From a virus (taxonomy: Duplodnaviria > Heunggongvirae > Uroviricota > Caudoviricetes), in IMG/VR virus record IMGVR_UViG_3300025073_000880: 64,000 bases of DNA. The stretch is one strand, 5' to 3'. This document shows, piece after piece, positions 33,290-53,653 of this stretch. Every line of letters starts with the position of its first letter. The stretch's first letter is position 1. Below the pieces are notes generated by a model. That model had not been told where the DNA came from. It saw only the letters and a list, made by a program, of their open reading frames with translations, and made no database searches. Position numbers and translations under genes: made by a program.

Positions 33290-35350
33290 ACTATGTTCCT
33301 TACCGCCACCACACCACCACAGCTCTGCCTGCTCTCCCTCTCTCCCTATGAAGCAGTCTATCTATTGCTATATTAGTATTGGTAGACTATCCCTCTCCCA
33401 GAATGCTGTCTGGGTCATTGGGTCTGCTTCGGCGGTCGGTCGGTCGTTTAGCGTCGCTTTCATACCGCTAGAATATTTAAAGGCTATTCTCCATGTATGA
33501 ATATGGTCTTTACCACTCATCTTGGAAGCCCAAATATTTTGAGCCTTTTGATCAACGGTAAAATATCTATATAATATCCATATAAAAAACCACCATTCGT
33601 AGCTTACTGCTTACCTATATACCCAACGACGAGTTTGGTAGCAGGAAAGCCACAAATAGTGGTTCTTTTCGTCGTTGGCATATTTTCCTCTTTCTCTCTA
33701 CACCCATTACAGCATACGCATTTAACTGTGTCAAGACATCCCTAAAAAAAACCCTGTGGATAACTCATAAATATCACCTATTTTACCAACAAATTCCACA
33801 CCCTCTTACCATAAAAATTGCATAAATACACCACCAGTACCCCACCAATAAATAATCCAAATGTAACTAAACAATATACAAGCAATGCAATAACACTATA
33901 CACTACAACATCAATTAAAAATAACATATGTTTATATTCTTAGTTTATATTCTTAACCCTCAACACATTGGTGATATGATTAGTAACTACTACTATCTTA
34001 AACTTATAGATTTTGCGGGCAGTTAATGTCGCAAACATATTGCAATCATCGGCTTTGATGCCCACCAGCTATAAGAGTCCAAGGCATTTATGCAATATGC
34101 CAAGAGTTAAAAATATTACCTTTTATGCAATTTCTTTATCTTAACACACAAAACTTTACTTGTCAATCTAAATAACCATAAAACACCAAAACTGTCAATA
34201 TTACCCAAATCCTAGCCGGATTTTTTTTGACCCCAACTCTTTTTCACCTCTCCACCACCCTACCCAACTGCCCCCCCCCCTACCCCCAACCATCACACCA
34301 AAAGGACAAAACCTAACTAACACTCAACCTCCAGCTTCAATTCTGGGGTTCTACAAGCCCCGTACAGCATCGAAACTATACTTTTAATGATAATGTACCA
34401 CTCAGCCTTTTTAGACCCCTGTTTTGACACTCTTTTTGGATGACCCCTGGCTTTGAGGCCTAGGGCTTAGAACCCAAGCCTCAGGGCTCAAGGCTTAGGG
34501 CTTAGAACCCAAGGCTTAAAGCCCATAACCTGAAACCAAAAGCCAAAAGCTCAAGGCTTAAGGCTGGCAACCAAAAGATTAGTAACCACAAAGCAATGGG
34601 GCAACATAACCAGATAGACATACTCTTTCCTAAAATTTTATCCGCAGAGCGTGAGGGTACCATATATAAGGGGGGGGCACATTTGGGGGAGTCCCCGCCA
34701 AGACACTCCCCCCCCACCCTTCCACCACGCAACCACAAGCCTTCCGCCTTTGGGCTTTAGGCTCGTGAGTTGTGGGGGGGCTTGTAAGTTTTTTAGGTTA
34801 GGGCTTGAGGCTTGGGGCTTGGGGCAAAATACCTGTCGGGGAAAATGATATAGACTTGACTGTAACATTTTTAGTCTTTTGGCTTGTTCTATTAGTTTCA
34901 AGTGTCGGCAAATATACCTTTTACGACTCTTAGCTTTGGGCTGTGGATAAAAAAAACTACTCACTTGACAAGCAGAAAAAAATACTGTATCCTAATAATA
35001 GGAAGGAATGAACTGTACCATTGGCATATAGGCTAATATCTTTACACATTTTTGTCGAAAAAAAGGGACTATGGGTGATTATTCATCCACCTTGTCGGCT
35101 CAATGTGTTAGTAATTGGCTTGTAGAGCTTGGAGGCTCAAGGCTTGGGGGCGGGTAAGATAATAGTTGATTACTGCATCGGCTATTCCCGCCCTTAGCGG
35201 TTGGGCGTTCCATATGCCCTTTCGTCTTATGACGATTGCCCTCCGCCTTAGAGCCTTAAAGATCCAAAAATTATTTAACATTTCGCCATTTTTAGCTTAT
35301 TTTTCAATTTTAGCCAAAAAATGGGGCTTAAAATTGACCCATAAGAGATT
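33290..35350. other. Non-coding hub about 2 kb long where transcription diverges. Contains iteron-like repeats, hairpins and G/C homopolymer tracts. Candidate replication origin or regulatory region.
   Basis: No credible ORF. Minus genes end at its left edge and plus genes start at 35357. Contains an 18-bp direct repeat TAGGGCTTAGAACCCAAG x2 (34461 and 34494), GGCTTGAGGCTTGGGGCTTGGGG, and C10/G8/C8/G7 tracts at 34271, 34670, 34698 and 34774. Confidence 0.5.
34334..34432 (+). repeat. Conserved ~100-nt intergenic element, copy a.
   Basis: CTTCAATTCTGGGGTTCTACAAGCCCCGTACAGCATCGAAACTATACTTTTAATGATAATGTACCACTCAGC...TTTTGACAC. The two other copies are at 37949 and 62343 (reverse orientation). Confidence 0.6.
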
Positions 35351-42857: not shown

Positions 42858-43964
42858 TTACTTAAATAATTTGTTTTGATTGTTACAATATAAAAACCTT
42901 GGACTGAACGGAGACGACTTTCTTTTATATCTTTTACACATAAATTGCCTCATTGTTTTTAACCCCTCCTGTCTATTTGAAGTAAACAGATTGTTTACCA
43001 CGCAGTCTCCACATTTAGACACCTCTATCTCATGAGCCATTTGATTTTCTGTCCAATCAACCCCATGATTATACGCCATAGCAGTTGTGTTATAGCTAGT
43101 TGACTTTTTTATTAAAGGGTCTCCGCAACAACACTTACCAGAAGATATGTGGTGCATATCGTTGTCTGCTATGCTATATGGTATATTATACTTTTCTAAT
43201 TCCTCTAAAACTGGTTTATATAATTCTTCTCTTATTGCTGGTTTCAAATTTAGAAGACCCATTTGTATAAAACTTTTCTTTGGTATTTTAAGATGTTTAG
43301 TTATAAATTCACTATGTTTTTTGTTTTGTGGGACTATCTTTATCCCTTCTATTGTAAAATAATCTGCATCATTAAACATCTCTACTATTTTTTCATCGGA
43401 CACACCTGGTATAAATGGTTGTATTCTTATGCCAACCTTGAAACCTCTATCTTTTAATGAACGATAAAACCTATACCTTTGTTCTATTGTTACTACATTA
43501 GATTCTATATCCATTCTATTATCAACATTTGTAATACTTAGTTGAAATGCGTGTAATTTTGGTTTTATTTCCGCCCCGTAAACAGAAAAACCCTTAGTAG
43601 AAAATAATATACTTATTCCATATCTGTTAGTTATATCTATCATTTTCTTTGTAGCCTCAAACTTTTCCTCTGATGGTTGAAATGGGTCGCTCATCCCCCC
43701 ACAATGCCAAGTTATTCCATCGTTTATTAACACCTCAAGATAGTTTGTTTTATTTACATTCTTATCATCAAATATCTTTTTTAGTTTTCTTTCTATGTAT
43801 TTTTCATCCCCTACCTGTAAGTCTTTTTCAAACTCCATTATTACTCTGTTGTTAGCAAAGCAATACTTGCAACCATGCGAACAATTTTTGTATGTATCTA
43901 CCCGTATAGGAAGACCACACAATCCAAATTTGCTACTAACACTTAATGGTATAAATTTCTTCAT
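42858..43964 (-). CDS. Radical SAM enzyme.
   Basis: CSHGCKYC (CxxxCxxC) near the N-terminus. Confidence 0.65.
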   Translation of the reverse strand: MKKFIPLSVSSKFGLCGLPIRVDTYKNCSHGCKYCFANNRVIMEFEKDLQVGDEKYIERKLKKIFDDKNVNKTNYLEVLINDGITWHCGGMSDPFQPSEEKFEATKKMIDITNRYGISILFSTKGFSVYGAEIKPKLHAFQLSITNVDNRMDIESNVVTIEQRYRFYRSLKDRGFKVGIRIQPFIPGVSDEKIVEMFNDADYFTIEGIKIVPQNKKHSEFITKHLKIPKKSFIQMGLLNLKPAIREELYKPVLEELEKYNIPYSIADNDMHHISSGKCCCGDPLIKKSTSYNTTAMAYNHGVDWTENQMAHEIEVSKCGDCVVNNLFTSNRQEGLKTMRQFMCKRYKRKSSPFSPRFLYCNNQNKLFK

Positions 43965-44000
43965 ATTTTTATAATTGTAAAGTAATTGTCAAGTAATCGC

Positions 44001-44232
44001 CAGCAGGCTGAAGGTGAGTGGGTAATGGACTTCCACCATTACACGATACCCTAGTCGGGGGCATCTCGGTGTGGTGTTCCCACTATCCGACTTTACGGTT
44101 TCACCTAGCGTCTATCTTCCGCCACCACTCACCACCGCAGTCTGCCCGATTGAGCGAGGAGGCAAAGCCCCCACTGCGGTTTTCAGCCTCTGTATGTCTA
44201 ACAGAGCTGGATTACTCCAGCCTGCTGGGGGC
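44001..44232. ncRNA. GC-rich structured RNA candidate, family unknown. It could be the 5' leader of the radical SAM gene if transcribed on the minus strand.
   Basis: GC much higher than its surroundings. A 10-bp closing helix CAGCAGGCUG/CAGCCUGCUG encloses several nested perfect hairpins (GUAAUGG/CCAUUAC, AGUCGG/CCGACU, CCGCAGU/ACUGCGG, CUCUGU/ACAGAG). No credible ORF. Confidence 0.4.
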
Positions 44233-45453
44233 TAGTTACTACCAAGAATATTTACCACAGTTGCAGGTAGCTTGACTGCTATCAACCAAACAAAATCCAC
44301 AATGTTCACAATATGGAACATCATTTTGCTTTGGTTCTTCAATGCTTGTGTTGTATATAGTTTTTTCTTCGCTCATATTAGATGACAGATGACAGTGGAA
44401 ATATACTTTTTTCTCTGTTCGTTGCCTCACATAATTCATCTGGTGGGTTTTCATTTCTTTTTTTTGTATGAGGAGTTTCTTTCCCACACAACCGACACCT
44501 ATACCAATAATAAGTTTCTGACAATGTAGAATTTATATCGCTCATTAACGGAAAATAATCATGTTTCATATATAGTTTAAAGTAACATTTTTTGTCTTAA
44601 TCTATCTTCCCCAATTTCACAATAATTTTTATTTATTTCACATCCTATGAAATTCCTGCTTAAATCAATTACGGCATAGCTGGGATTATTTTATCTTCAA
44701 CGCTAATCTCACCGAACAGATTTTTGTTTTTATTCAATTTCATTTTATTTTTCTCGCTTAATCTGGAGGCTTGGATGGTATTGGGGCGTGAGATAGTGTC
44801 CCCATTTAGTTTTACATCTACGCAATTTTTTTTAAACACCCCCAAGCCCCCCAGACTAGGCGAGAATGTCGCCTAGAGAGGTTATTTGGTTATACCTTTA
44901 ACTGCCCACATTACTGATTCTTCTAGCTTTGTTTTTGCTAATGCAATTTCACGACCGTTTTTCTCATTCAAGCCAACATGAATTGCCAGCAATAATTGAT
45001 AAGCTACATCTTTGATGTTATCAATTCTCATCGCATCTTCCTCTGAAAGGTTATGATATATAGGATGAAAAATGTTTTCTAGTTCTCCCGTACATTTATT
45101 TTATTATTTATTTTGTCATTAAGACCCATTTAACATCAGGAAACGCTTTAACAAAGCTTTTCTTTGCCTTTGCATTATTACTCTTCGCCTTTTTTATTAT
45201 TTCTTTTTCAGTTATTTCTTTAAGTGGTATTATGAACAAACTAATGATAAACGGATTCCCAGCCCACACGTGCCAACTTCTTTGTGTTTTATCAAGCCAG
45301 ACATAATCAGATATTTGTTTCCCATTCGCTTTACCCATATTTTTAATTCTTAGAGCCACCCTGCCCCCGTATTAGAGACCTCACGCTTGTCGTTCACCGT
45401 GGGTGAAGGAGGTGCAACAATATACAAAGGGCAGAGTGGCTTTATGAAAAAAA

Positions 45454-46935
45454 CTAAATAATAATTCGTTTATACCTGTCGGAGTTAATCGTATTCATCA
45501 TAACCTCATAAGGCGTTTTATTCTCAACTGCCATCTTGAATATTACAGGAGAAAAGCCGGAAACCATTGACACGCCTCGCTCACTCTCTTTGACTGGCAA
45601 ATTCTCTCCGCTTGCATTTACATTCCAAAACACTAGATTCGGTCTGACATACCCCAGCTGGGAATACTTTTGTTCAATAACCTCAAAATTAGTTTGGTCG
45701 CCATAAGTAGCCTGGTCAAACTCCATGTCTGAAATAATGTAAATCGTGTCTGGCATTTCATCTTCCGGCGTGCTGTTCTGAACGGCAGTTGTTAAAATTA
45801 AATCAAACACAGCCTGAACGTTGGTGTTAGCTACGTCCCCAAGCTGAATGCTATTCATTTTATCCCTCAAATTTGCACCTTGAACCTTATGTAATTTCGG
45901 CTGTCCTGAAAATGAAATAAAGTAATTCTGGAATTGTCCTTTATTTCTCTCAGCAAAATATAGTGCCAACGAAACAGATACAGATATTGGGACGCCAGTC
46001 ATCGATCCTGATGTGTCAGCTACTACTAAGGCATTTTTCCCTTGTGTATAATCAGGTAGCTGATTCCATAAGGCTTCAAGCGTTTTAGAATAATCCGCCC
46101 AAACGGAATTGTATATTTGATATGGATATAATGTCCCTGCATTTATCTTCACCTCACCTTTTTCTGCCTTTTCAATAAACTTTTCATACCTCTTCTCATC
46201 GTGTTTCTTAAAGACATTTTTATAAATTCTTGACGCTTGGCTTGGAACAACAGAATAATTTATATCCGGCCACTTTTTAGCTGACATCTTTTCTTCAACT
46301 GTCGCTATTTTTTTTCTAATAGACCTGATAAGTTTTCTATAAGCCATTTCATCTATCCCTAACCCATTAGCCATAAATCTTGCTTTTTTTCTGGTATTAA
46401 GGCTTGAAGCGTTAATGGTTGGAAGCCATTTAGCCAGCAGGGACGGTTTATCCTCCTTTTGGTCTTTTTCCAGTTGGCTTTTAATCAACAAGAAACATTT
46501 TTTATTATCAAAAAATAAATCATCAAAGCGACCATACTCTTGGACAAAATCTACAATCTTTTCAAATATAGAAGGTTCATTTTCACCTAACCATTGCAGA
46601 CAAACCCTAAATAAGGCTCGCTCACCCTGGCCTCCCCTTATATCTCTAAGATAAAACAAAACCTTAATTGCCTTTTCTCTATCTTCCGAAAACGCTCGTT
46701 TGAATAAATCAAGGGCTTTTTTAGGCTCACCCCTCATCGCTCCAGCCTGAGCATAAAAATCTAAAAGAGCCGACTGCGTTCGAGTAAAAGTCTTTGCCTC
46801 GTTTTTTGTTCTCCCATAGGACGTGTTTACATACATCCCATTGATTAAAGAATTCCCACTTGATTTCTTTGCTCCTTCAGGAGCTTTCATCTCATTGATG
46901 TTTTTCATATTTTTGAAACAAGACGCTTTTAACAC
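45454..46935 (-). CDS. rsr: Ro60/Rsr ortholog (TROVE domain plus vWA domain).
   Basis: YLRDIRGGQGER TROVE region and VVADTSGSMTG MIDAS motif. 493 aa. Confidence 0.65.
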   Translation of the reverse strand: MLKASCFKNMKNINEMKAPEGAKKSSGNSLINGMYVNTSYGRTKNEAKTFTRTQSALLDFYAQAGAMRGEPKKALDLFKRAFSEDREKAIKVLFYLRDIRGGQGERALFRVCLQWLGENEPSIFEKIVDFVQEYGRFDDLFFDNKKCFLLIKSQLEKDQKEDKPSLLAKWLPTINASSLNTRKKARFMANGLGIDEMAYRKLIRSIRKKIATVEEKMSAKKWPDINYSVVPSQASRIYKNVFKKHDEKRYEKFIEKAEKGEVKINAGTLYPYQIYNSVWADYSKTLEALWNQLPDYTQGKNALVVADTSGSMTGVPISVSVSLALYFAERNKGQFQNYFISFSGQPKLHKVQGANLRDKMNSIQLGDVANTNVQAVFDLILTTAVQNSTPEDEMPDTIYIISDMEFDQATYGDQTNFEVIEQKYSQLGYVRPNLVFWNVNASGENLPVKESERGVSMVSGFSPVIFKMAVENKTPYEVMMNTINSDRYKRIII

Positions 46936-46960
46936 TATAGATTAACAGTCTATTGTTTTA

Positions 46961-47240
46961 TTTATATTGCTGTTAGCGTCTTCAATTATTTTATATAACA
47001 AGACCCATTTTCTTTGAAAATAGAATTTCAATTTAATTGCTGTTAGGGTCTTAATGAATTTTAAATGTGCGAGCGAGTGGGGATTGAACCCACGACCAAC
47101 GGCCTGAATGCTTTTTAGTTGCTGTTAGTGTCTTACAAGACACATTTTTACGTTGCTCTACCACTGAGCTATCGCTCGCATAACACGACGCATTTTGACA
47201 AAGTAAGAATTTGTTTTGCTGTATTGCTGTTAGCGTCGTA
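46961..47240 (-). repeat. Four copies of the minus-strand motif GACNC-UAACAGCAA, each with a covarying partner stem. One copy is inside the tRNA-like RNA. Y-RNA-like module array.
   Basis: Copies at 46964, 47037, 47122 and 47226 (plus strand TTGCTGTTAGNGTC). Partner pentamers covary: GACGC/GCGTC, GACCC/GGGTC, GACAC/GUGUC, GACGC/GCGTC. Confidence 0.55.
47069..47180 (-). ncRNA. tRNA-like Y-RNA candidate (YrlA-like). It has canonical acceptor, D and T arms, but ~50 nt replace the anticodon loop.
   Basis: Acceptor CGAGCGA/UCGCUCG with G-1:C73; D arm GCUC-AGUGGUA-GAGC; T arm GUGGG-UUCAAUC-CCCAC. The anticodon-position stem (C)AACG/CGUU(G) encloses a hairpin GUGUC-UUGUAA-GACAC followed by UAACAGCAA. 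Lies between rsr and rtcB. Confidence 0.5.
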
Positions 47241-47296
47241 ATACAATTAACTTATTTACTTGACGATTACTTGACAATTAGATATAGGAATATTTT

Positions 47297-49441
47297 TTAA
47301 CCCTTGATTACCGCTAATGGATTTAATTCCACAAGTATTTCAACCAAATCTGCCTGGTTTTGCATAACTTCATCTATTGGCTTATATGCGCCAGGGGCTT
47401 CCTCCAAATCATCTTTGTTCCTCATCCCGTGAATTATCCCTTTGTCATCCATTATTTTCTTTTGTTCATCAAAGTCTAACTGTTCACACGCCGCCTTTCG
47501 CCCTAGCCTTCTCCCTGCTCCATGTGAACATGATTCAAACGATTCTTTATTTCCAAGACCTTTGACGATATATGACTTTGTTCCCATTGAACCAGGAATT
47601 ATTCCGATTGTTCCTTCTCTTGCTAAGGTCGCACCCTTTCTGTGAACCCAGACGTTCTGTCCAAAATGATTTTCTTGTGTGGCGTAATTATGAGCAATGT
47701 TAATAAGTCCACTATTGTCGCCATTTTCATTTTTAACTATAAAATTAGTTATTTCAAAAGCAGTCTTGTAATCCATCTCCCTTAAAAAACAGCCAACAAT
47801 TCTATCCATCATCAATTTTCTATTTGCCAAGGCGAACTCTACACAATACTGCATTTCTCCGATATATGCCTGCCCCTCATCACTATCAACTGGTAAAAAT
47901 GCCAGCTGCCATTCTTTCGGGACTGAACTGTGCCATTTATCGTTTAATTCAACAGCTAATTTGTTGTAATAGTCAGCCACCTGCTTGCCTAGGTTTCGGC
48001 TACCACTATGTATCATTATCCAGATATGCCCATCAGATCCTTTTTGTATTTCAATAAAGTGGTTACCACCGCCAAGAGTTCCTATTTGTTTTAGAGCAGA
48101 GTTATATTGCTCTTTGATTATTGGTTTCCCAACATCATAGTTTGTGGGCATTAAATCCTCGTTTTGTTTTTCTTTATGATGATTAAATCCAACTGGTATT
48201 TGCTTTCTTGTCTCTCCCATTATTTTTTTTATGGTTTCAGTCTCAATTTCAGTTAGAGATGTTTTGACCGCACACATTCCGCAGTTCCCTGTAATAAATA
48301 TTTTATTGTTTCTTCTGGCGATAAAATAACCAGTCTCAACTACAAAACAATACTTCTTTCCATCTTTTATCTTTATTTTTTTAGGTTTACTAAATCCAAC
48401 ATAATTATTTTGCGTTTGATATACATGATACCAATCTTTCCAGTTCTTTTGTTTACTCCTAATAATACCTATACCCGCCCTTATCCCATTTAGGGCACAT
48501 ATATATTGGATAGCATCTGCGTTTATTTTATTTGTCGTAGCATATGTTTTGTGATGTCTTTTTTTGTCTATTGAGCCGTCCCAATATAAATATTCATCAA
48601 AAACAACCTTTGCCTGATTTTGGTTACAGTTATACAAATCGGTTAAATCTTTATCGCAAACCCAATCTACTTTAAAACTGATTGATTCTGTCCCATCTTT
48701 ATGAAAATATTCTTTAAAAAAAACATTAGACTTTTTTAATAAAAATTTACATCTCTCTATCTTTCTTCTTTTCTTGAAGTGCATTTCAATAGTGGTATGC
48801 TTGTTTGATTTATTTCTTATATGTCCATCAGCCGACGCCATAACTCTAATAGCTAGTTGCTCATCAGATAATTTTATGCCAGATTCACGCGTAGGGAAAG
48901 TAGTTCTAATGGAATAATAATCTTGTTTTTTACATTTCAACAACATTTCTCTAAAATCCTTGCAAAAATAAGTATAATCATTTTTCTTCCTGCCATAGCC
49001 TTTATAAACCAACATTCTATGTTCATCGCTTAAAACATGGTCTAATCCATATTTATTTTTATATTCAGTAAAATTTTCACAAGGCTTAACGATATATAAT
49101 AACGGTTTACTGAAAAAAGATGTTTCTTTATAATTATCCCAAACTAAAACGTCTTCGTTGTTATATTTATCAATAGTTATCCATCCGTTTTTAGTTAAAA
49201 CTTCGGTTTCTTTATCCACTGCCCCGATATCTACACCCACAGCGTTTGGAATTATTACGCCTTTGGTCGCCAATACACCACCGATAGGCATACCGTAACC
49301 AACATGGCTGTCAGGCATGATAGCGATGTGTTTAAATGCAAATGGAAGATTCGCAAGATTCTTGGCTTGTGCTAATGCTTCATCCTCAATGTCCTTGAGC
49401 CACATCTTTATTGGTATTTTTTCGGTTGCAACAACTTCCAT
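47297..49441 (-). CDS. rtcB: RtcB RNA 3'-phosphate ligase interrupted by an intein.
   Basis: IMPDSHVGYG, GGGNHFIEIQ and SCSHGAGRR motifs. About 313 aa are inserted between VGVDIG and CGMCAV. Confidence 0.8.
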   Translation of the reverse strand: MEVVATEKIPIKMWLKDIEDEALAQAKNLANLPFAFKHIAIMPDSHVGYGMPIGGVLATKGVIIPNAVGVDIGAVDKETEVLTKNGWITIDKYNNEDVLVWDNYKETSFFSKPLLYIVKPCENFTEYKNKYGLDHVLSDEHRMLVYKGYGRKKNDYTYFCKDFREMLLKCKKQDYYSIRTTFPTRESGIKLSDEQLAIRVMASADGHIRNKSNKHTTIEMHFKKRRKIERCKFLLKKSNVFFKEYFHKDGTESISFKVDWVCDKDLTDLYNCNQNQAKVVFDEYLYWDGSIDKKRHHKTYATTNKINADAIQYICALNGIRAGIGIIRSKQKNWKDWYHVYQTQNNYVGFSKPKKIKIKDGKKYCFVVETGYFIARRNNKIFITGNCGMCAVKTSLTEIETETIKKIMGETRKQIPVGFNHHKEKQNEDLMPTNYDVGKPIIKEQYNSALKQIGTLGGGNHFIEIQKGSDGHIWIMIHSGSRNLGKQVADYYNKLAVELNDKWHSSVPKEWQLAFLPVDSDEGQAYIGEMQYCVEFALANRKLMMDRIVGCFLREMDYKTAFEITNFIVKNENGDNSGLINIAHNYATQENHFGQNVWVHRKGATLAREGTIGIIPGSMGTKSYIVKGLGNKESFESCSHGAGRRLGRKAACEQLDFDEQKKIMDDKGIIHGMRNKDDLEEAPGAYKPIDEVMQNQADLVEILVELNPLAVIKG
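48284..49222 (-). mobile_element. Intein (about aa 74-386 of RtcB) with a LAGLIDADG endonuclease domain.
   Basis: Begins AVDKETEVLTKNGWITI (block A-like, Ala1). Ends ...KIFITGN followed by Cys+1. Internal LAIRVMASADGHI and YLYWDGSIDKK motifs. The exteins total ~401 aa, the normal RtcB size. Confidence 0.6.
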
Positions 49442-49453
49442 ACGTTTATTTTA

Positions 49454-50320
49454 TTATTTAACATTTAGAAACGGCAACGCTGAGTTCGGCATCATATAAG
49501 TCGGCAGTTTTCCATCCCACTTCTCCACGGCTTTTAAATCAACATACGATTGACCGCCTTGTTGAGTAATCGCTTGTGCTTGGATTTTAATAGCTTCGGC
49601 TTCGGCTTTAGCTTGTTCAATTCTTTGCTCGGCTTCAAATTTAACTTGCTCTAATTTGTTTTTAGCCGCCAAAGCGTTCTGTTCAGCAGTAACCTTCTGT
49701 TCGATCGCCGAATTGAAACTGTCAGAAAAATCAAAATTAACAATGGAAAGCTCATCAACAATAATGTATTCCTCTGCCAGTCTAAGTTTCAGGTTTTCTT
49801 TTGCCACATTTTTCACTTGCTCACGCTTTGTTATAAGCTCATCAGCCGTAAATTGAGCAGTCGCCGCCTTTAATGCTTCTTGAATCGCAGGATCAATTAT
49901 CCTTGCCTTATAATCTTTACCAATGTTTTGGAATAATTTATTAACATTCCCAGCGTCAAGGTGATAATTAAGAGCAATCGTAGAACTGACTGTCTGCAAA
50001 TCCTTACTCGCCGCCGCTACATCAACCTCATCTTTTTGTGTCTTGACATCAAACTTTTTAACATCCCTTGAAATTGGCGTAATCCAATGAATGCCCTCAC
50101 CTAAAATTCTGTCTTCAACCGCTCCCCAATGAGTAATAACTCCACGCTCGCCAGCTGAAATCATTACAACTGGATTTAGAACAAGGAATAAAATTAAACA
50201 AACAAATCCAATTACTAGTCCAATAAATATTTTCATACTATTTTTTCTTTTTATTATTGAATAAAAGTCTATAAACCCCAGCCCCCGCAAGACCGACCAC
50301 TGCAAGCAGGGCAATCTCAA
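49454..50320 (-). CDS. SPFH (band-7/stomatin/HflKC-like) domain membrane protein.
   Basis: N-terminal TM segment, then ISAGERGVITHWGAV...EGIHWITPI SPFH core and a coiled-coil C-terminus. Confidence 0.6.
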   Translation of the reverse strand: MRLPCLQWSVLRGLGFIDFYSIIKRKNSMKIFIGLVIGFVCLILFLVLNPVVMISAGERGVITHWGAVEDRILGEGIHWITPISRDVKKFDVKTQKDEVDVAAASKDLQTVSSTIALNYHLDAGNVNKLFQNIGKDYKARIIDPAIQEALKAATAQFTADELITKREQVKNVAKENLKLRLAEEYIIVDELSIVNFDFSDSFNSAIEQKVTAEQNALAAKNKLEQVKFEAEQRIEQAKAEAEAIKIQAQAITQQGGQSYVDLKAVEKWDGKLPTYMMPNSALPFLNVK

Positions 50321-52618: not shown

Positions 52619-53653
52619 TTAACTCTCAATTTTCATCGAAAGATAATTTTGTAATTTCAGCCCAAACTTCCAACTCATACACTCATCAGCCGTCTTACCT
52701 TTGGCGTATTCTGGGTCAATCCCTGACACATATATCCTGCCTGTTGACGGACAACTATACCGCAGAAAATAGGCATCGGGGAAACTCATAAAATCCTTGA
52801 CTAGCCACAACTCATTTCCTCTGTCTGATTTTTCTACCATTCTACCTTTTAGGGATCTTAGCATCACTTCGCTATCGGCATACTTCAACGCAATCATCCT
52901 CTGTTCCATATTCTTCATTGACATTATTTCTTCACCCGATAATTTTTTTTCAACAACCTTATCAAACAAATCTTTCTCAAAACGAACTCCGTGAAGAAAG
53001 TAAAACTCTTTGCCGCCTTTCCATTTTATTGCCGGTTTTAATTCTGAATGAAATTCATTGTCTTTATCCAATAAAACAAGTGGTGTAGGAACTAGGTATA
53101 ATACACCTTCATACTCAACTCTATACCCAAGCCCATATTCTTTAGCTTGCATTAAAAGCTCACAATGTTCTAAATACTTATAATCATTTTCGTTTGGTAA
53201 ATTTTCTTTGTCTGGATTCTGACAATACTCAAATTCATAAACATACCAATCAAAATCATAATCTATGGCTGACCAGGCTGACCAGGCTGACCCGGCTGAC
53301 CCGGCTGACCCGGCTGACCTGGCTGACCAGGCTGACCCGGCTGACCCGGCTGACCTGGCTGACCCGGCTGACCCGGCTGACCTGGCTGACCAGGCTGACC
53401 CGGCTGACCAGGCTGACCAGGCTGACCTGGCTGACCCGGCTGACCAGGCTGACCCGGCTGCATCTTGAAACTTTTTTACAAAAATATCTACACACCACAT
53501 TATTTTATTTGGTCGTGGAAGATCGAAAATATCATACGTTTTCAAAATACACTCCTCGGCGTTTTTCTTGTCCAATTCAAAATCTTTGCGTTCAACATTT
53601 CGGCACATCCTATCAATTAAATCTTGTGTTTTTTGTGAGTAATTATGTGTCAT
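52619..53653 (-). CDS. Hypothetical protein with an internal (SAWSAGSAR)n repeat.
   Basis: Encoded by about 22 units of the 9-bp repeat GGCTGACCN at 53265-53462. Confidence 0.4.
53265..53462. repeat. Tandem 9-bp repeat GGCTGACC(A/C/T), about 22 copies.
   Basis: Perfect periodicity. GC-rich island in an AT-rich genome. Confidence 0.85.

Follow-up and report, generated by a model that had tools for sequence, protein, structure and literature searches.

A structured non-coding RNA in a phage genome whose 3′ half is a probable non-decoding tRNA mimic of tRNA-Leu type

Results

The element and its neighbours

The element described here lies at positions 44000-44232 of the window, by which we mean the whole stretch of phage DNA that was analysed (64,000 nt). 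The minus strand carries all of the neighbouring genes (Table 1). The stop codon of the nearest Zn-ribbon ORF is located 7 nt upstream of the element, and the ATG of the radical SAM gene 37 nt downstream.

Table 1. Genes around the element and parts of the minus-strand RNA, in window positions
Feature	Position	Strand	Basis or remark
Band-7/SPFH protein	49454-50320	-	Pfam / precomputed annotation
RtcB, interrupted by LAGLIDADG intein	47297-49441	-	Pfam / precomputed annotation
Non-coding gap, 360 nt	between RtcB and DUF2828 genes	-	Pfam / precomputed annotation
Canonical tRNA-like RNA, anticodon arm carrying an inserted module	47069-47178		in the window, upstream of DUF2828 gene
DUF2828+DUF7788 protein	45454-46935	-	Pfam; 1.2 kb upstream of element
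Acb2/Tad1-hairpin-like ORF, 49 aa	44882-45031	-	annotation
Two overlapping Cys-rich ORFs (Zn-ribbon)	44239-44569	-	Pfam / precomputed annotation
Whole composite RNA (~230 nt)	44000-44232	-	outer helix P1, lineage-specific 5′ domain and tRNA-like 3′ domain
P1, 5′ strand (CCAGCAGGCUGGA)	44216-44228	-	pairs with 44000-44012; GC-rich, 13-14 bp
Hairpin A, 5′ domain (CAGCUCUGU-UAGACAU-ACAGAgGCUG)	44184-44209	-	MFE helices; ensemble probability 0.87
Three-way junction B, 5′ domain	44134-44180	-	8-bp stem around GGGGGC-UUU-GCCUCC and GCUC-AAUC-GGGC; ensemble probability 0.99
tRNA-like domain (117-121 nt)	44013-44133	-	covariance model R1; architecture; covariation
Acceptor UGAGUGG/CCACUCA, 7 bp	44131-44125 with 44021-44015	-	ensemble probability 0.98
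Acceptor extended to 9 bp	44133-44125 with 44021-44013	-	folding
D-arm-like block UGGCG-GAAGAUAGA-CGCUA	44106-44124	-	exact match to family block; directly 3′ of acceptor strand
Variable middle in place of anticodon and variable arms	44043-44105	-	three private hairpins, no anticodon-type stem-loop
Private hairpin 1	44105-44097	-	folding
Private hairpin 2	44090-44066	-	folding
Private hairpin 3	44065-44045	-	folding
T-arm-like hairpin GUAAUGG-UGGAAGU-CCAUUAC (7 bp, 7-nt loop UGRRAGU, variant b)	44022-44042	-	ensemble probability 0.95; abuts 3′ acceptor strand
P1, 3′ strand (UUCAGCCUGCUGG)	44000-44012	-	in trailer, 37 nt upstream of radical SAM start codon
Radical SAM protein, distantly PA0069/Rv2578c-like	42858-43964	-	annotation

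DUF2828 is a very large phage family (more than 7,900 matches at about 70% identity, none closer than 73%). The AlphaFold model of the DUF2828 protein (pLDDT 74.6) gave one match at E ≤ 0.001 in a fold search of the PDB, which was Ro60 with RNA (1yvp_B, E 4.7e-5, 521 aligned columns); the other fold matches covered the vWA domain only, and a search of the PDB with the protein sequence gave no match. An arrangement of rsr, Y RNA and rtcB genes has been described in bacteria (Chen et al. 2014, PMC4201824). The Ro60-like fold match and the RtcB neighbour suggest that the island is the phage counterpart of that arrangement. On the strength of the structural model, the element is located in a predicted phage RtcB/Ro60-like RNA-repair island; the family to which it belongs (see below) is, overall, not tied to such islands. 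Literature searches on DUF2828 and on phage tRNA-Leu-like RNAs found nothing specific.

A highly structured, non-coding element

An earlier note, made from the sequence alone, had pointed to a GC-rich, highly structured element between the radical SAM and Zn-ribbon genes. GC content is 0.569 over 44001-44232 compared to 0.352 across the 64-kb window, and 100-nt windows across 44000-44200 reach 0.55-0.59 against flanks of about 0.3, in agreement with that description. The other strong GC islands of the window are unrelated to the element: the one near 53.3 kb is a coding 9-nt repeat, and the one at 34-35 kb is non-coding and rich in repeats. The minimum free energy of the element is -114 to -115.6 kcal/mol on the minus strand (z -5.3) and -104.8 kcal/mol on the plus strand (z -5.2), and these values were equalled by 0 of 200 dinucleotide shuffles on either strand. 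The 10-bp closing helix that had been proposed, formed by the complementary terminal decamers CAGCAGGCTG (44001-44010) and CAGCCTGCTG (44218-44227), was confirmed, and on the minus-strand RNA it reaches 13-14 bp (44228-44216 with 44012-44000); our own estimate, from a helix search between the 35-nt trailer and the 160-nt leader, is that about 0.006 helices of this length are expected by chance. The nested hairpins are also present, with ensemble probabilities of 0.87-0.99.

The only long ORF over the element (44018-44275, plus strand, 85 aa) had been judged compositionally implausible, and it has no relative among 5.8 billion predicted proteins or, by tblastn, in plasmids. On the minus strand, stop codons break every frame across the element. 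The element is non-coding and the ORF is spurious.

Similarity searches with the element were empty. Rfam 15 at gathering scores gave nothing relevant to the element in the 64-kb window, and with E ≤ 10 and permissive filters no family scored over 43900-44350 (tRNA, tmRNA, Y RNA and riboswitch models included); ARAGORN called no tRNA or tmRNA on it. The earlier statement that the element does not match tmRNA, RNase P or SRP therefore stands, and the Rfam scan that had been proposed as a check returned no known family. RNase P, the cobalamin riboswitch, group I introns and retron msr/msd were considered by eye and dropped: the element lacks the required order of motifs or the required partner gene (e.g. 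a reverse transcriptase), and none of the models gives a score. BLASTN against GenBank phages, plasmids and E. coli genomes gave no real match, exact 19-21-mers from the element had no matches in IMG/VR, and a mixed-degeneracy pattern for its middle region found nothing. Copies of the element were present in 23 contigs (the source contig, JGI 3300025121, of 76.8 kb, and 22 others) and are 100% identical, so that no covariation can be drawn from them. Exact-protein look-ups of the neighbouring genes led only to 100% identical contigs and to no diverged copy of the element.

A family of phage tRNA-like RNAs

A total of 80 DUF2828 loci from IMG/VR were compared with the element by BLASTN, and this gave the first relative (locus L047). 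It is a non-coding stretch of about 225 nt on the same strand as the DUF2828 gene and about 1.7 kb downstream of it, and it aligns with the 3′ half of the element. The two share a covarying closing stem and an identical hairpin (UGGCG-GAAKAUAGA-CGCUA), and the last hairpin of L047 (7 bp, UGRAAGU loop) shows two double compensatory changes with respect to the window element.

The shared hairpin corresponds to a 19-nt D-arm block of tRNA-Leu type, UGGCGGAAGAUAGACGCUA (UGGCGGAAKAUAGACGCYA), which occurs in 55 contigs of IMG/VR and in at least 119 stretches from metagenomes; by our own estimate fewer than about 10 matches to the pattern are expected by chance in IMG/VR. The family was recovered by requiring this block, and its invariance is in part a product of the search. 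In every element, the block is preceded by 7 nt that pair with a 7-mer located 45-330 nt downstream, and a hairpin directly precedes that 7-mer. A descriptor of this arrangement gave 45 matches in real sequence vs. 0 in reversed sequence. In all, at least 94 unique complete elements were collected from IMG/VR and metagenomes, with lengths of 82-273 nt (median 141). They share one layout (acceptor stem, U8, D-arm, middle, T-arm, 3′ acceptor strand), and each member has an idiosyncratic middle of its own, 31 to about 200 nt long and lacking an anticodon-type stem-loop. Two variants can be distinguished by the last hairpin: variant a has a 5-bp stem and a UAUCGAAU loop (51 among the elements listed), and variant b, which includes the window, has a 7-bp stem and a UGRRAGU loop (34 among the elements listed).

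The discriminator is A in 48 of the 94 elements listed, and CCA is encoded in nine of the 94. A tRNA gene lies within 500 nt of 16 of these 94 elements, on the same strand in all 16 cases and sometimes only 5-27 nt away, and two family members adjoin phage tmRNA genes. No recurrent neighbouring protein family was found around the members.

A covariance model (R1) was built from 31 members, excluding the window. Searched against the 64-kb window, R1 gave a single match (44015-44131, minus strand, 33.2 bits, E 3.3e-8) over the full length of the model, and the boundaries of the match are those that had been derived by hand. The window element has the acceptor stem, the D-arm block and the abutting T-arm-like hairpin of the family as well as this covariance score. 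The R1 match and the helix set found there place the RNA on the minus strand, and this orientation agrees with that of all the neighbouring genes. In the window copy, the helices of the tRNA-like domain have ensemble probabilities of 0.95-0.99. Direct reading shows that its D-loop has no GG and that its T-loop is UGGAAGU and not UUCRANY. Neither RF00005 nor ARAGORN scores the elements of the family, and the term "tRNA-like" is used here on the basis of their architecture. The family is uncatalogued: Rfam 15, ARAGORN and GenBank annotation all miss it.

Covariation and a remodelled elbow

Relatives were thus available for the homologue comparison that the earlier note had suggested, and the T-stem covaries. 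Among 16 variant b sequences (window included), 99.3% of the cells are paired and 13 of 18 pairs have changed on both sides; the observed values were reached in 0 of 500 shuffles, a statistic that is inflated by the common descent of the sequences, and the signal breaks down when the partners are shifted by 1-3 columns. The 31 variant b cores other than the window are 100% paired, with double changes in all seven T-stem pairs, and variant a is also 100% paired, with double changes in four of five T-stem pairs. Across the alignments, 99-100% of the cells are paired, six to seven of the seven pairs of the 7-bp T-stem have double changes, and 0 of 500 shuffles were as good, again with the inflation due to common descent. 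Closure of the acceptor stem was a criterion in the selection of the elements, and consequently the independent evidence consists only of the T-stem and of the dependence between D-loop and T-loop described next.

The D-loop contains one variable position. This position is G in 48 of the 49 elements whose T-loop starts with UAUC, which is complementary to GAUA of the D-loop, while among elements with UGRRAGU T-loops 18 have G and 16 have U (Fisher 5e-7 against the UAUC type, a value that common descent also inflates). The dependence fits a redesigned elbow contact, as far as can be judged from sequence. Taken at the level of sequence comparison, these data demonstrate that the RNAs of the family are under selection for RNA structure. 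The suggestion that the element might be a novel structured non-coding RNA has accordingly been borne out by its folding energy, its lack of coding capacity and a family with covariation. The ribozyme that had been offered as another possibility found no supporting evidence, and the conserved core is a tRNA-type cloverleaf remnant.

The 5′ domain and the closing helix P1

The 5′ region of the RNA (about 95 nt) is also structured when folded alone (z -3.46). Under these conditions it forms a GNRA-capped hairpin (GCUGGA-GUAA-UCCAGC) that competes with P1; the conformation with P1 is at -110.0 kcal/mol and that with the local hairpin at -107.8 kcal/mol, 2.2 kcal/mol apart. No homologue of the 5′ domain was found in 270 fetched loci, a transition-tolerant pattern for it found nothing in IMG/VR, and the private middle (44043-44105) likewise had no homologue among the 270 loci. 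An outer closing helix was not above chance in the other members of the family. One member (L101) has an AU/G-U-rich outer closure of 14 bp, and in L047 the acceptor stem runs on to about 19 bp; no other member has a GC-rich closure comparable to P1. The 5′ region and P1 thus appear to be specific to this phage lineage, no relatives having been found. We consider the 232-nt unit to be a composite, since the conserved tRNA mimic sits inside a lineage-specific leader and a leader-trailer helix. The acceptor of the window copy, which is 9 bp long and enclosed by P1, may hinder RNase P.

Comparison with tRNA-Leu and with other tRNA-like RNAs

The structured RNAs known from phages include tRNAs, tmRNAs, Y RNAs and a small number of stable tRNA-like RNAs. 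In one locus (L144), the phage's own tRNA-Leu shares the acceptor stem, the D-stem and the T-stem almost base for base with the family element, which indicates that the family descends from phage tRNA-Leu genes. Class II tRNA-Leu and the family have in common a 7-bp acceptor, U8, a G-C-G D-stem and a T-arm stacked directly against the 3′ strand of the acceptor; in the D-arm, class II tRNA-Leu (UGGCGRAAUNGGUAGACGC) is nearly identical to the family block, and the discriminator of the family is often A. Unlike tRNA-Leu, the family has no anticodon stem-loop and no D-loop GG, carries a private insert of 31 to about 200 nt, and has UGRRAGU or UAUCGAAU in place of UUCRANY in the T-loop. The window element shows none of the hallmarks of a canonical tRNA (RF00005 or ARAGORN score, anticodon arm, D-loop GG, UUC T-loop). 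With three private hairpins in place of the anticodon and variable arms, it cannot decode.

The YrlA-type Y RNAs resemble the window element in being non-decoding, in having a tRNA-like domain and a long end-to-end stem, and in the presence of a Ro60-like gene and RtcB nearby. In YrlA, the D- and T-loops are canonical and are modified by DusA and TruB, and the position of the acceptor is taken by a closed stem-loop (PMC4201824). Unlike YrlA, the ends of the window element form an acceptor and its elbow is non-canonical, and the family is found mostly away from Ro-like genes; the element scores with no Rfam Y RNA model at E ≤ 10, and its loops are not those of a Y RNA. The order of parts in the family is also that of tmRNA (5′ acceptor strand, D-like element, large insert at the anticodon position, T-arm, 3′ acceptor strand). 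Unlike tmRNA, family members are much shorter, no tag reading frame or pseudoknot series was identified in them, and ARAGORN and RF00023 give no score.

The tRNA cluster of T4 encodes, on the same strand, the small stable non-tRNA RNAs rnaC and rnaD (species 1 and 2 RNA, 139 and 119 nt). By folding, rnaC shares with the family its paired ends, the long hairpins between them and a T-arm directly next to the 3′ strand. Unlike the family, the two RNAs have no D-arm block, and the T-loop of rnaC is canonical. R1 scores them at most at about 5 bits. Given the missing D-arm block and these scores, we regard rnaC and rnaD as analogues and not as members. To our knowledge, their function has never been established.

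Discussion

We consider it fairly probable that the element is a minus-strand non-coding RNA whose 3′ half is a non-decoding tRNA mimic from a tRNA-Leu-derived phage family, joined to a lineage-specific 5′ domain. The RNA would probably be co-transcribed with the flanking minus-strand genes. Its 3′ 117-121 nt would have descended from a phage tRNA-Leu with the acceptor stem, the D-stem and the acceptor-stacked T-arm kept, and with an elbow remodelled by the loss of the D-loop GG and by a UGGAAGU T-loop. The tRNA-processing enzymes (RNase P, 3′ trimming, CCA addition) probably recognise it, as they would recognise its relatives in phage tRNA operons. The product probably acts as a stable tRNA look-alike, which would either lure or compete for a tRNA-binding factor, as a decoy or competitor, or present the variable insert on a scaffold. 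The lineage-specific 5′ domain and P1 could belong to a precursor or serve in processing, or they could add a further functional domain.

Other explanations have to be weighed against this one, and the first of them is suggested by the island itself. P1 and the tRNA-like domain might copy the YrlA plan, so that the RNA would bind the DUF2828/DUF7788 protein and connect this protein with RtcB-linked RNA repair or decay. The sole PDB match of the DUF2828 model at E ≤ 0.001 is RNA-bound Ro60, the RtcB and Band-7 genes adjoin the DUF2828 gene, and YrlA is a long stem with a tRNA-like domain that is encoded beside Ro60 (PMC4201824). Moreover, the closing stem is unusually long in the only two members found near DUF2828, being about 19 bp in L047 and consisting of P1 together with the 9-bp acceptor in the window. 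We nevertheless judge a Y-RNA-type partnership unlikely. A family member is clear in only one of 80 DUF2828 loci, DUF2828 is present in only one of the fetched family loci, and the intervening genes differ between the window and L047. DUF2828 genes also have conserved upstream RNA modules already (GACNC-UAACAGCAA...GNGUC-UUG), which are 27-fold enriched upstream of these genes and occur in 31 of 78 loci. In the window, one UAACAGCAA module sits in the anticodon arm of the canonical tRNA-like RNA at 47069-47178, and the element has no such module. No Rfam family, Y RNA models included, scored at E ≤ 10. A distinctly improbable alternative, which would be compatible with a tRNA mimic, is that the element is a punctuation signal: cleavage at its tRNA-like fold by RNase P/RNase Z would detach the radical SAM cistron from the small ORFs ahead of it and determine how stable the downstream mRNA is or how well it is translated, with P1 as a leader-trailer processing stem. 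In its favour, the element is tightly packed between same-strand ORFs, with 7 nt separating it from the preceding stop codon and 37 nt from the radical SAM ATG, there is no terminator-like site between the flanking ORFs, the L047 copy likewise begins a few nt past a stop codon, and some members are located in tRNA operons, where this kind of processing happens. However, radical SAM homologues occur with no element, many members are free-standing genes among tRNAs, and an invariant D-arm and a selected elbow contact exceed the needs of a cleavage signal.

The earlier note had also offered a riboswitch-like leader of the radical SAM gene and captured host sequence as possible explanations, and neither has fared well. 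A cis-regulatory leader would account for the position of the element, directly 5′ of the radical SAM gene on its coding strand, and for the two near-isoenergetic conformations (P1 vs. the GNRA hairpin, 2.2 kcal/mol apart). But the element is missing upstream of six radical SAM homologues (54-77% identity) in six other contigs (L001-L003, L014-L016), so that it is no conserved leader of the gene. Its conserved part is found in about 94 contexts that are unrelated and among which no downstream gene recurs, no riboswitch model scores, and no terminator or alternative fold that would sequester the start site is evident. We find this reading scarcely credible. It is also very improbable that the element is mobile DNA (a MITE-like insertion bounded by 11-bp terminal inverted repeats), that it was captured from a host, or that it is a functionless, decaying tRNA pseudogene. 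In favour of such origins, the GC content is foreign to the phage, terminal inverted repeats are present, the closest available relatives have no element, and the copy is identical in 23 of 23 contigs of this phage. Against mobility, there is no target-site duplication and no direct repeat flanking 44000 and 44232, and the element is single-copy in the 64-kb window, with no full-length copy found elsewhere (GenBank phages, IMG/VR, plasmids, E. coli and the 270 loci). Against host capture, no match was obtained in plasmids, E. coli genomes, GenBank phages or a genome scan, the last being a narrow test in which one 19-mer was compared with 185,579 species genomes and gave four matches, all by chance and with alignment limited to the 19-mer; the ancestry that can be traced leads to phage tRNA-Leu genes. 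Finally, the compensatory evolution of the tRNA-like core across about 94 elements argues for selection on the RNA and not for decay.

Features that tRNA-processing and tRNA-binding proteins recognise have been kept in the design of the family and those required by the ribosome have been removed, which is what a decoy, a competitor or a scaffold would require. It is conceivable, although we lean against it, that these RNAs are a new class of phage tRNA mimic, i.e. a tRNA-Leu scaffold with an elbow of new design, which a tRNA-handling factor of the host or the phage would charge or bind while the ribosome excludes it. Its role might be that of a decoy or sponge against defences that target tRNAs or, in this phage, that of a second Y-RNA-like partner to the Ro60-like/RtcB module, with the insert giving specificity. 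If that proposal were true, the family may explain stable tRNA-like RNAs of phage tRNA clusters such as T4 rnaC and rnaD. The family is large and variable enough for comparative work on phage tRNA mimics, and the window copy, located beside a Ro60-like/RtcB module and an Acb2-like ORF, offers a concrete system in which these roles could be tested.

RNA modules upstream of the Ro60-like gene

The window carries a gene for a DUF2828+DUF7788 protein whose predicted structure matches Ro60 (1yvp_B, E 4.7e-5); sequence searches of the same protein against the PDB gave no match. Phage metagenomes hold a very large number of DUF2828 family members, with more than 7,900 matches at E<=1e-60. Tandem RNA modules with the pattern GACNC-UAACAGCAA-(25-45 nt)-GNGUC-UUG lie immediately 5' of this Ro60-like gene, and comparable arrays precede DUF2828 in other phage loci fetched for comparison (L-numbers in the table). 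When the 800 nt 5' of the gene were examined, the modules were present in 31 of 78 DUF2828 loci, and UAACAGCA was enriched approximately 27-fold upstream of DUF2828, on the strand of the gene. These modules are candidate Y-RNA-type partners of the Ro60-like phage protein. No earlier description of these DUF2828-upstream modules was found.

A tRNA-like RNA of canonical type, its anticodon arm expanded by a 49-nt insert, is found in the same region. It scored 47.6 bits against the Rfam tRNA model, and it was detected neither by ARAGORN nor by the whole-window Rfam scan. The insert includes a circularly permuted UAACAGCAA module. Synechococcus phages B3 and B23 have features that are similar to this RNA and are annotated as 'tRNA-OTHER'.

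Coordinates of the features described, in the window and in the phage loci compared with it
Feature	Locus	Position	Strand	Remark
Tandem UAACAGCAA modules	window	46936-47296	minus	upstream of DUF2828
Tandem UAACAGCAA modules	L004	5690-6005		upstream of DUF2828
Tandem UAACAGCAA modules	L005	5800-5995		upstream of DUF2828
tRNA-like RNA with insert	window	47069-47178	minus	
DUF2828+DUF7788 gene	window	45454-46935	minus	
RtcB gene	window	47297-49441	minus	
TAATTGTCAAGTAATCG, first copy	window	43983-43999	plus	
TAATTGTCAAGTAATCG, second copy	window	47264-47280	minus	
Acb2/Tad1-type ORF	window	44882-45031	minus	49 aa
ORF 47% identical to the Acb2/Tad1-type ORF	L137	6602-6760		
Putative Cys-rich ORFs	window	44239-44569	minus	
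Stretch without long ORFs	window	about 33300-35270		
GGCTGACCN repeats	window	53270-53460		
ORF containing GGCTGACCN	window	52619-53653	minus	344 aa
rnaC and rnaD	L271 (phage T4)	70908-71171		
tRNA-Leu gene and family element	L144	6610-6696 and 7700-7860		
D-arm block with GAGGGUUCAAAUCCCUC T-arm	L112/L127 and L130			second elements
D-arm block with GAGGGUUCAAAUCCCUC T-arm	L031	329-412		

Neighbouring genes and repeats

A perfect 17-nt inverted repeat, TAATTGTCAAGTAATCG, flanks a 3.3-kb segment comprising the Y-like modules, the Ro-like gene, small ORFs and the structured tRNA-like element; one copy adjoins the element and the other comes right after the RtcB stop codon. Within one long transcript the two copies could form a long-range stem of 17-20 bp; alternatively, the repeat could mark the boundary of a cassette.

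An intein that carries a LAGLIDADG homing-endonuclease domain splits the RtcB RNA ligase gene, and the intein-bearing product (714 aa) is matched by NCBIfam intein-containing RtcB models. Directly 5' of the element, two putative small Cys-rich ORFs of 63 aa and 82/71 aa overlap, each in its own frame; gene callers differ in which of them they choose. A further short ORF, 650 nt 5' of the element, has the hairpin domain of Acb2/Tad1, the anti-CBASS/Thoeris sponge family. An ORF 47% identical to it lies approximately 330 nt 3' of the family member in L137, and from this shared gene content both RNAs may reside within anti-defence accessory regions.

Elsewhere in the window, a stretch of approximately 2 kb has no long ORFs. 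Poly-C and poly-G runs occur there, along with numerous repeats of the GGCTT/AAGCC type, and the stretch could represent an origin, a terminus or a region with a regulatory role. Approximately 21 tandem copies of the 9-nt unit GGCTGACCN (GC 0.72) lie inside an ORF, where their translation would give a collagen-like Gly-X-Y repeat.

tRNA-like RNAs in other phages

In the fold of the phage T4 stable RNA rnaC (species 1 RNA), the two ends pair with each other, two long hairpins form and a canonical T-arm adjoins the 3' strand (folding z -4.6); rnaD folded no better than shuffles (z -0.8).

One contig, L144, harbours both a phage tRNA-Leu gene and an element of the tRNA-Leu-derived mimic family, and the two are almost the same in their acceptor, D and T stems. 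Judged by this sequence likeness, the pair looks like a recent duplication, a tRNA in the course of becoming a mimic. Other relatives combine the 19-nt D-arm block of the family (1-4 mismatches) with the canonical or near-canonical T-arm GAGGGUUCAAAUCCCUC; they may be intermediate forms that link genuine tRNA-Leu genes to the mimic family.
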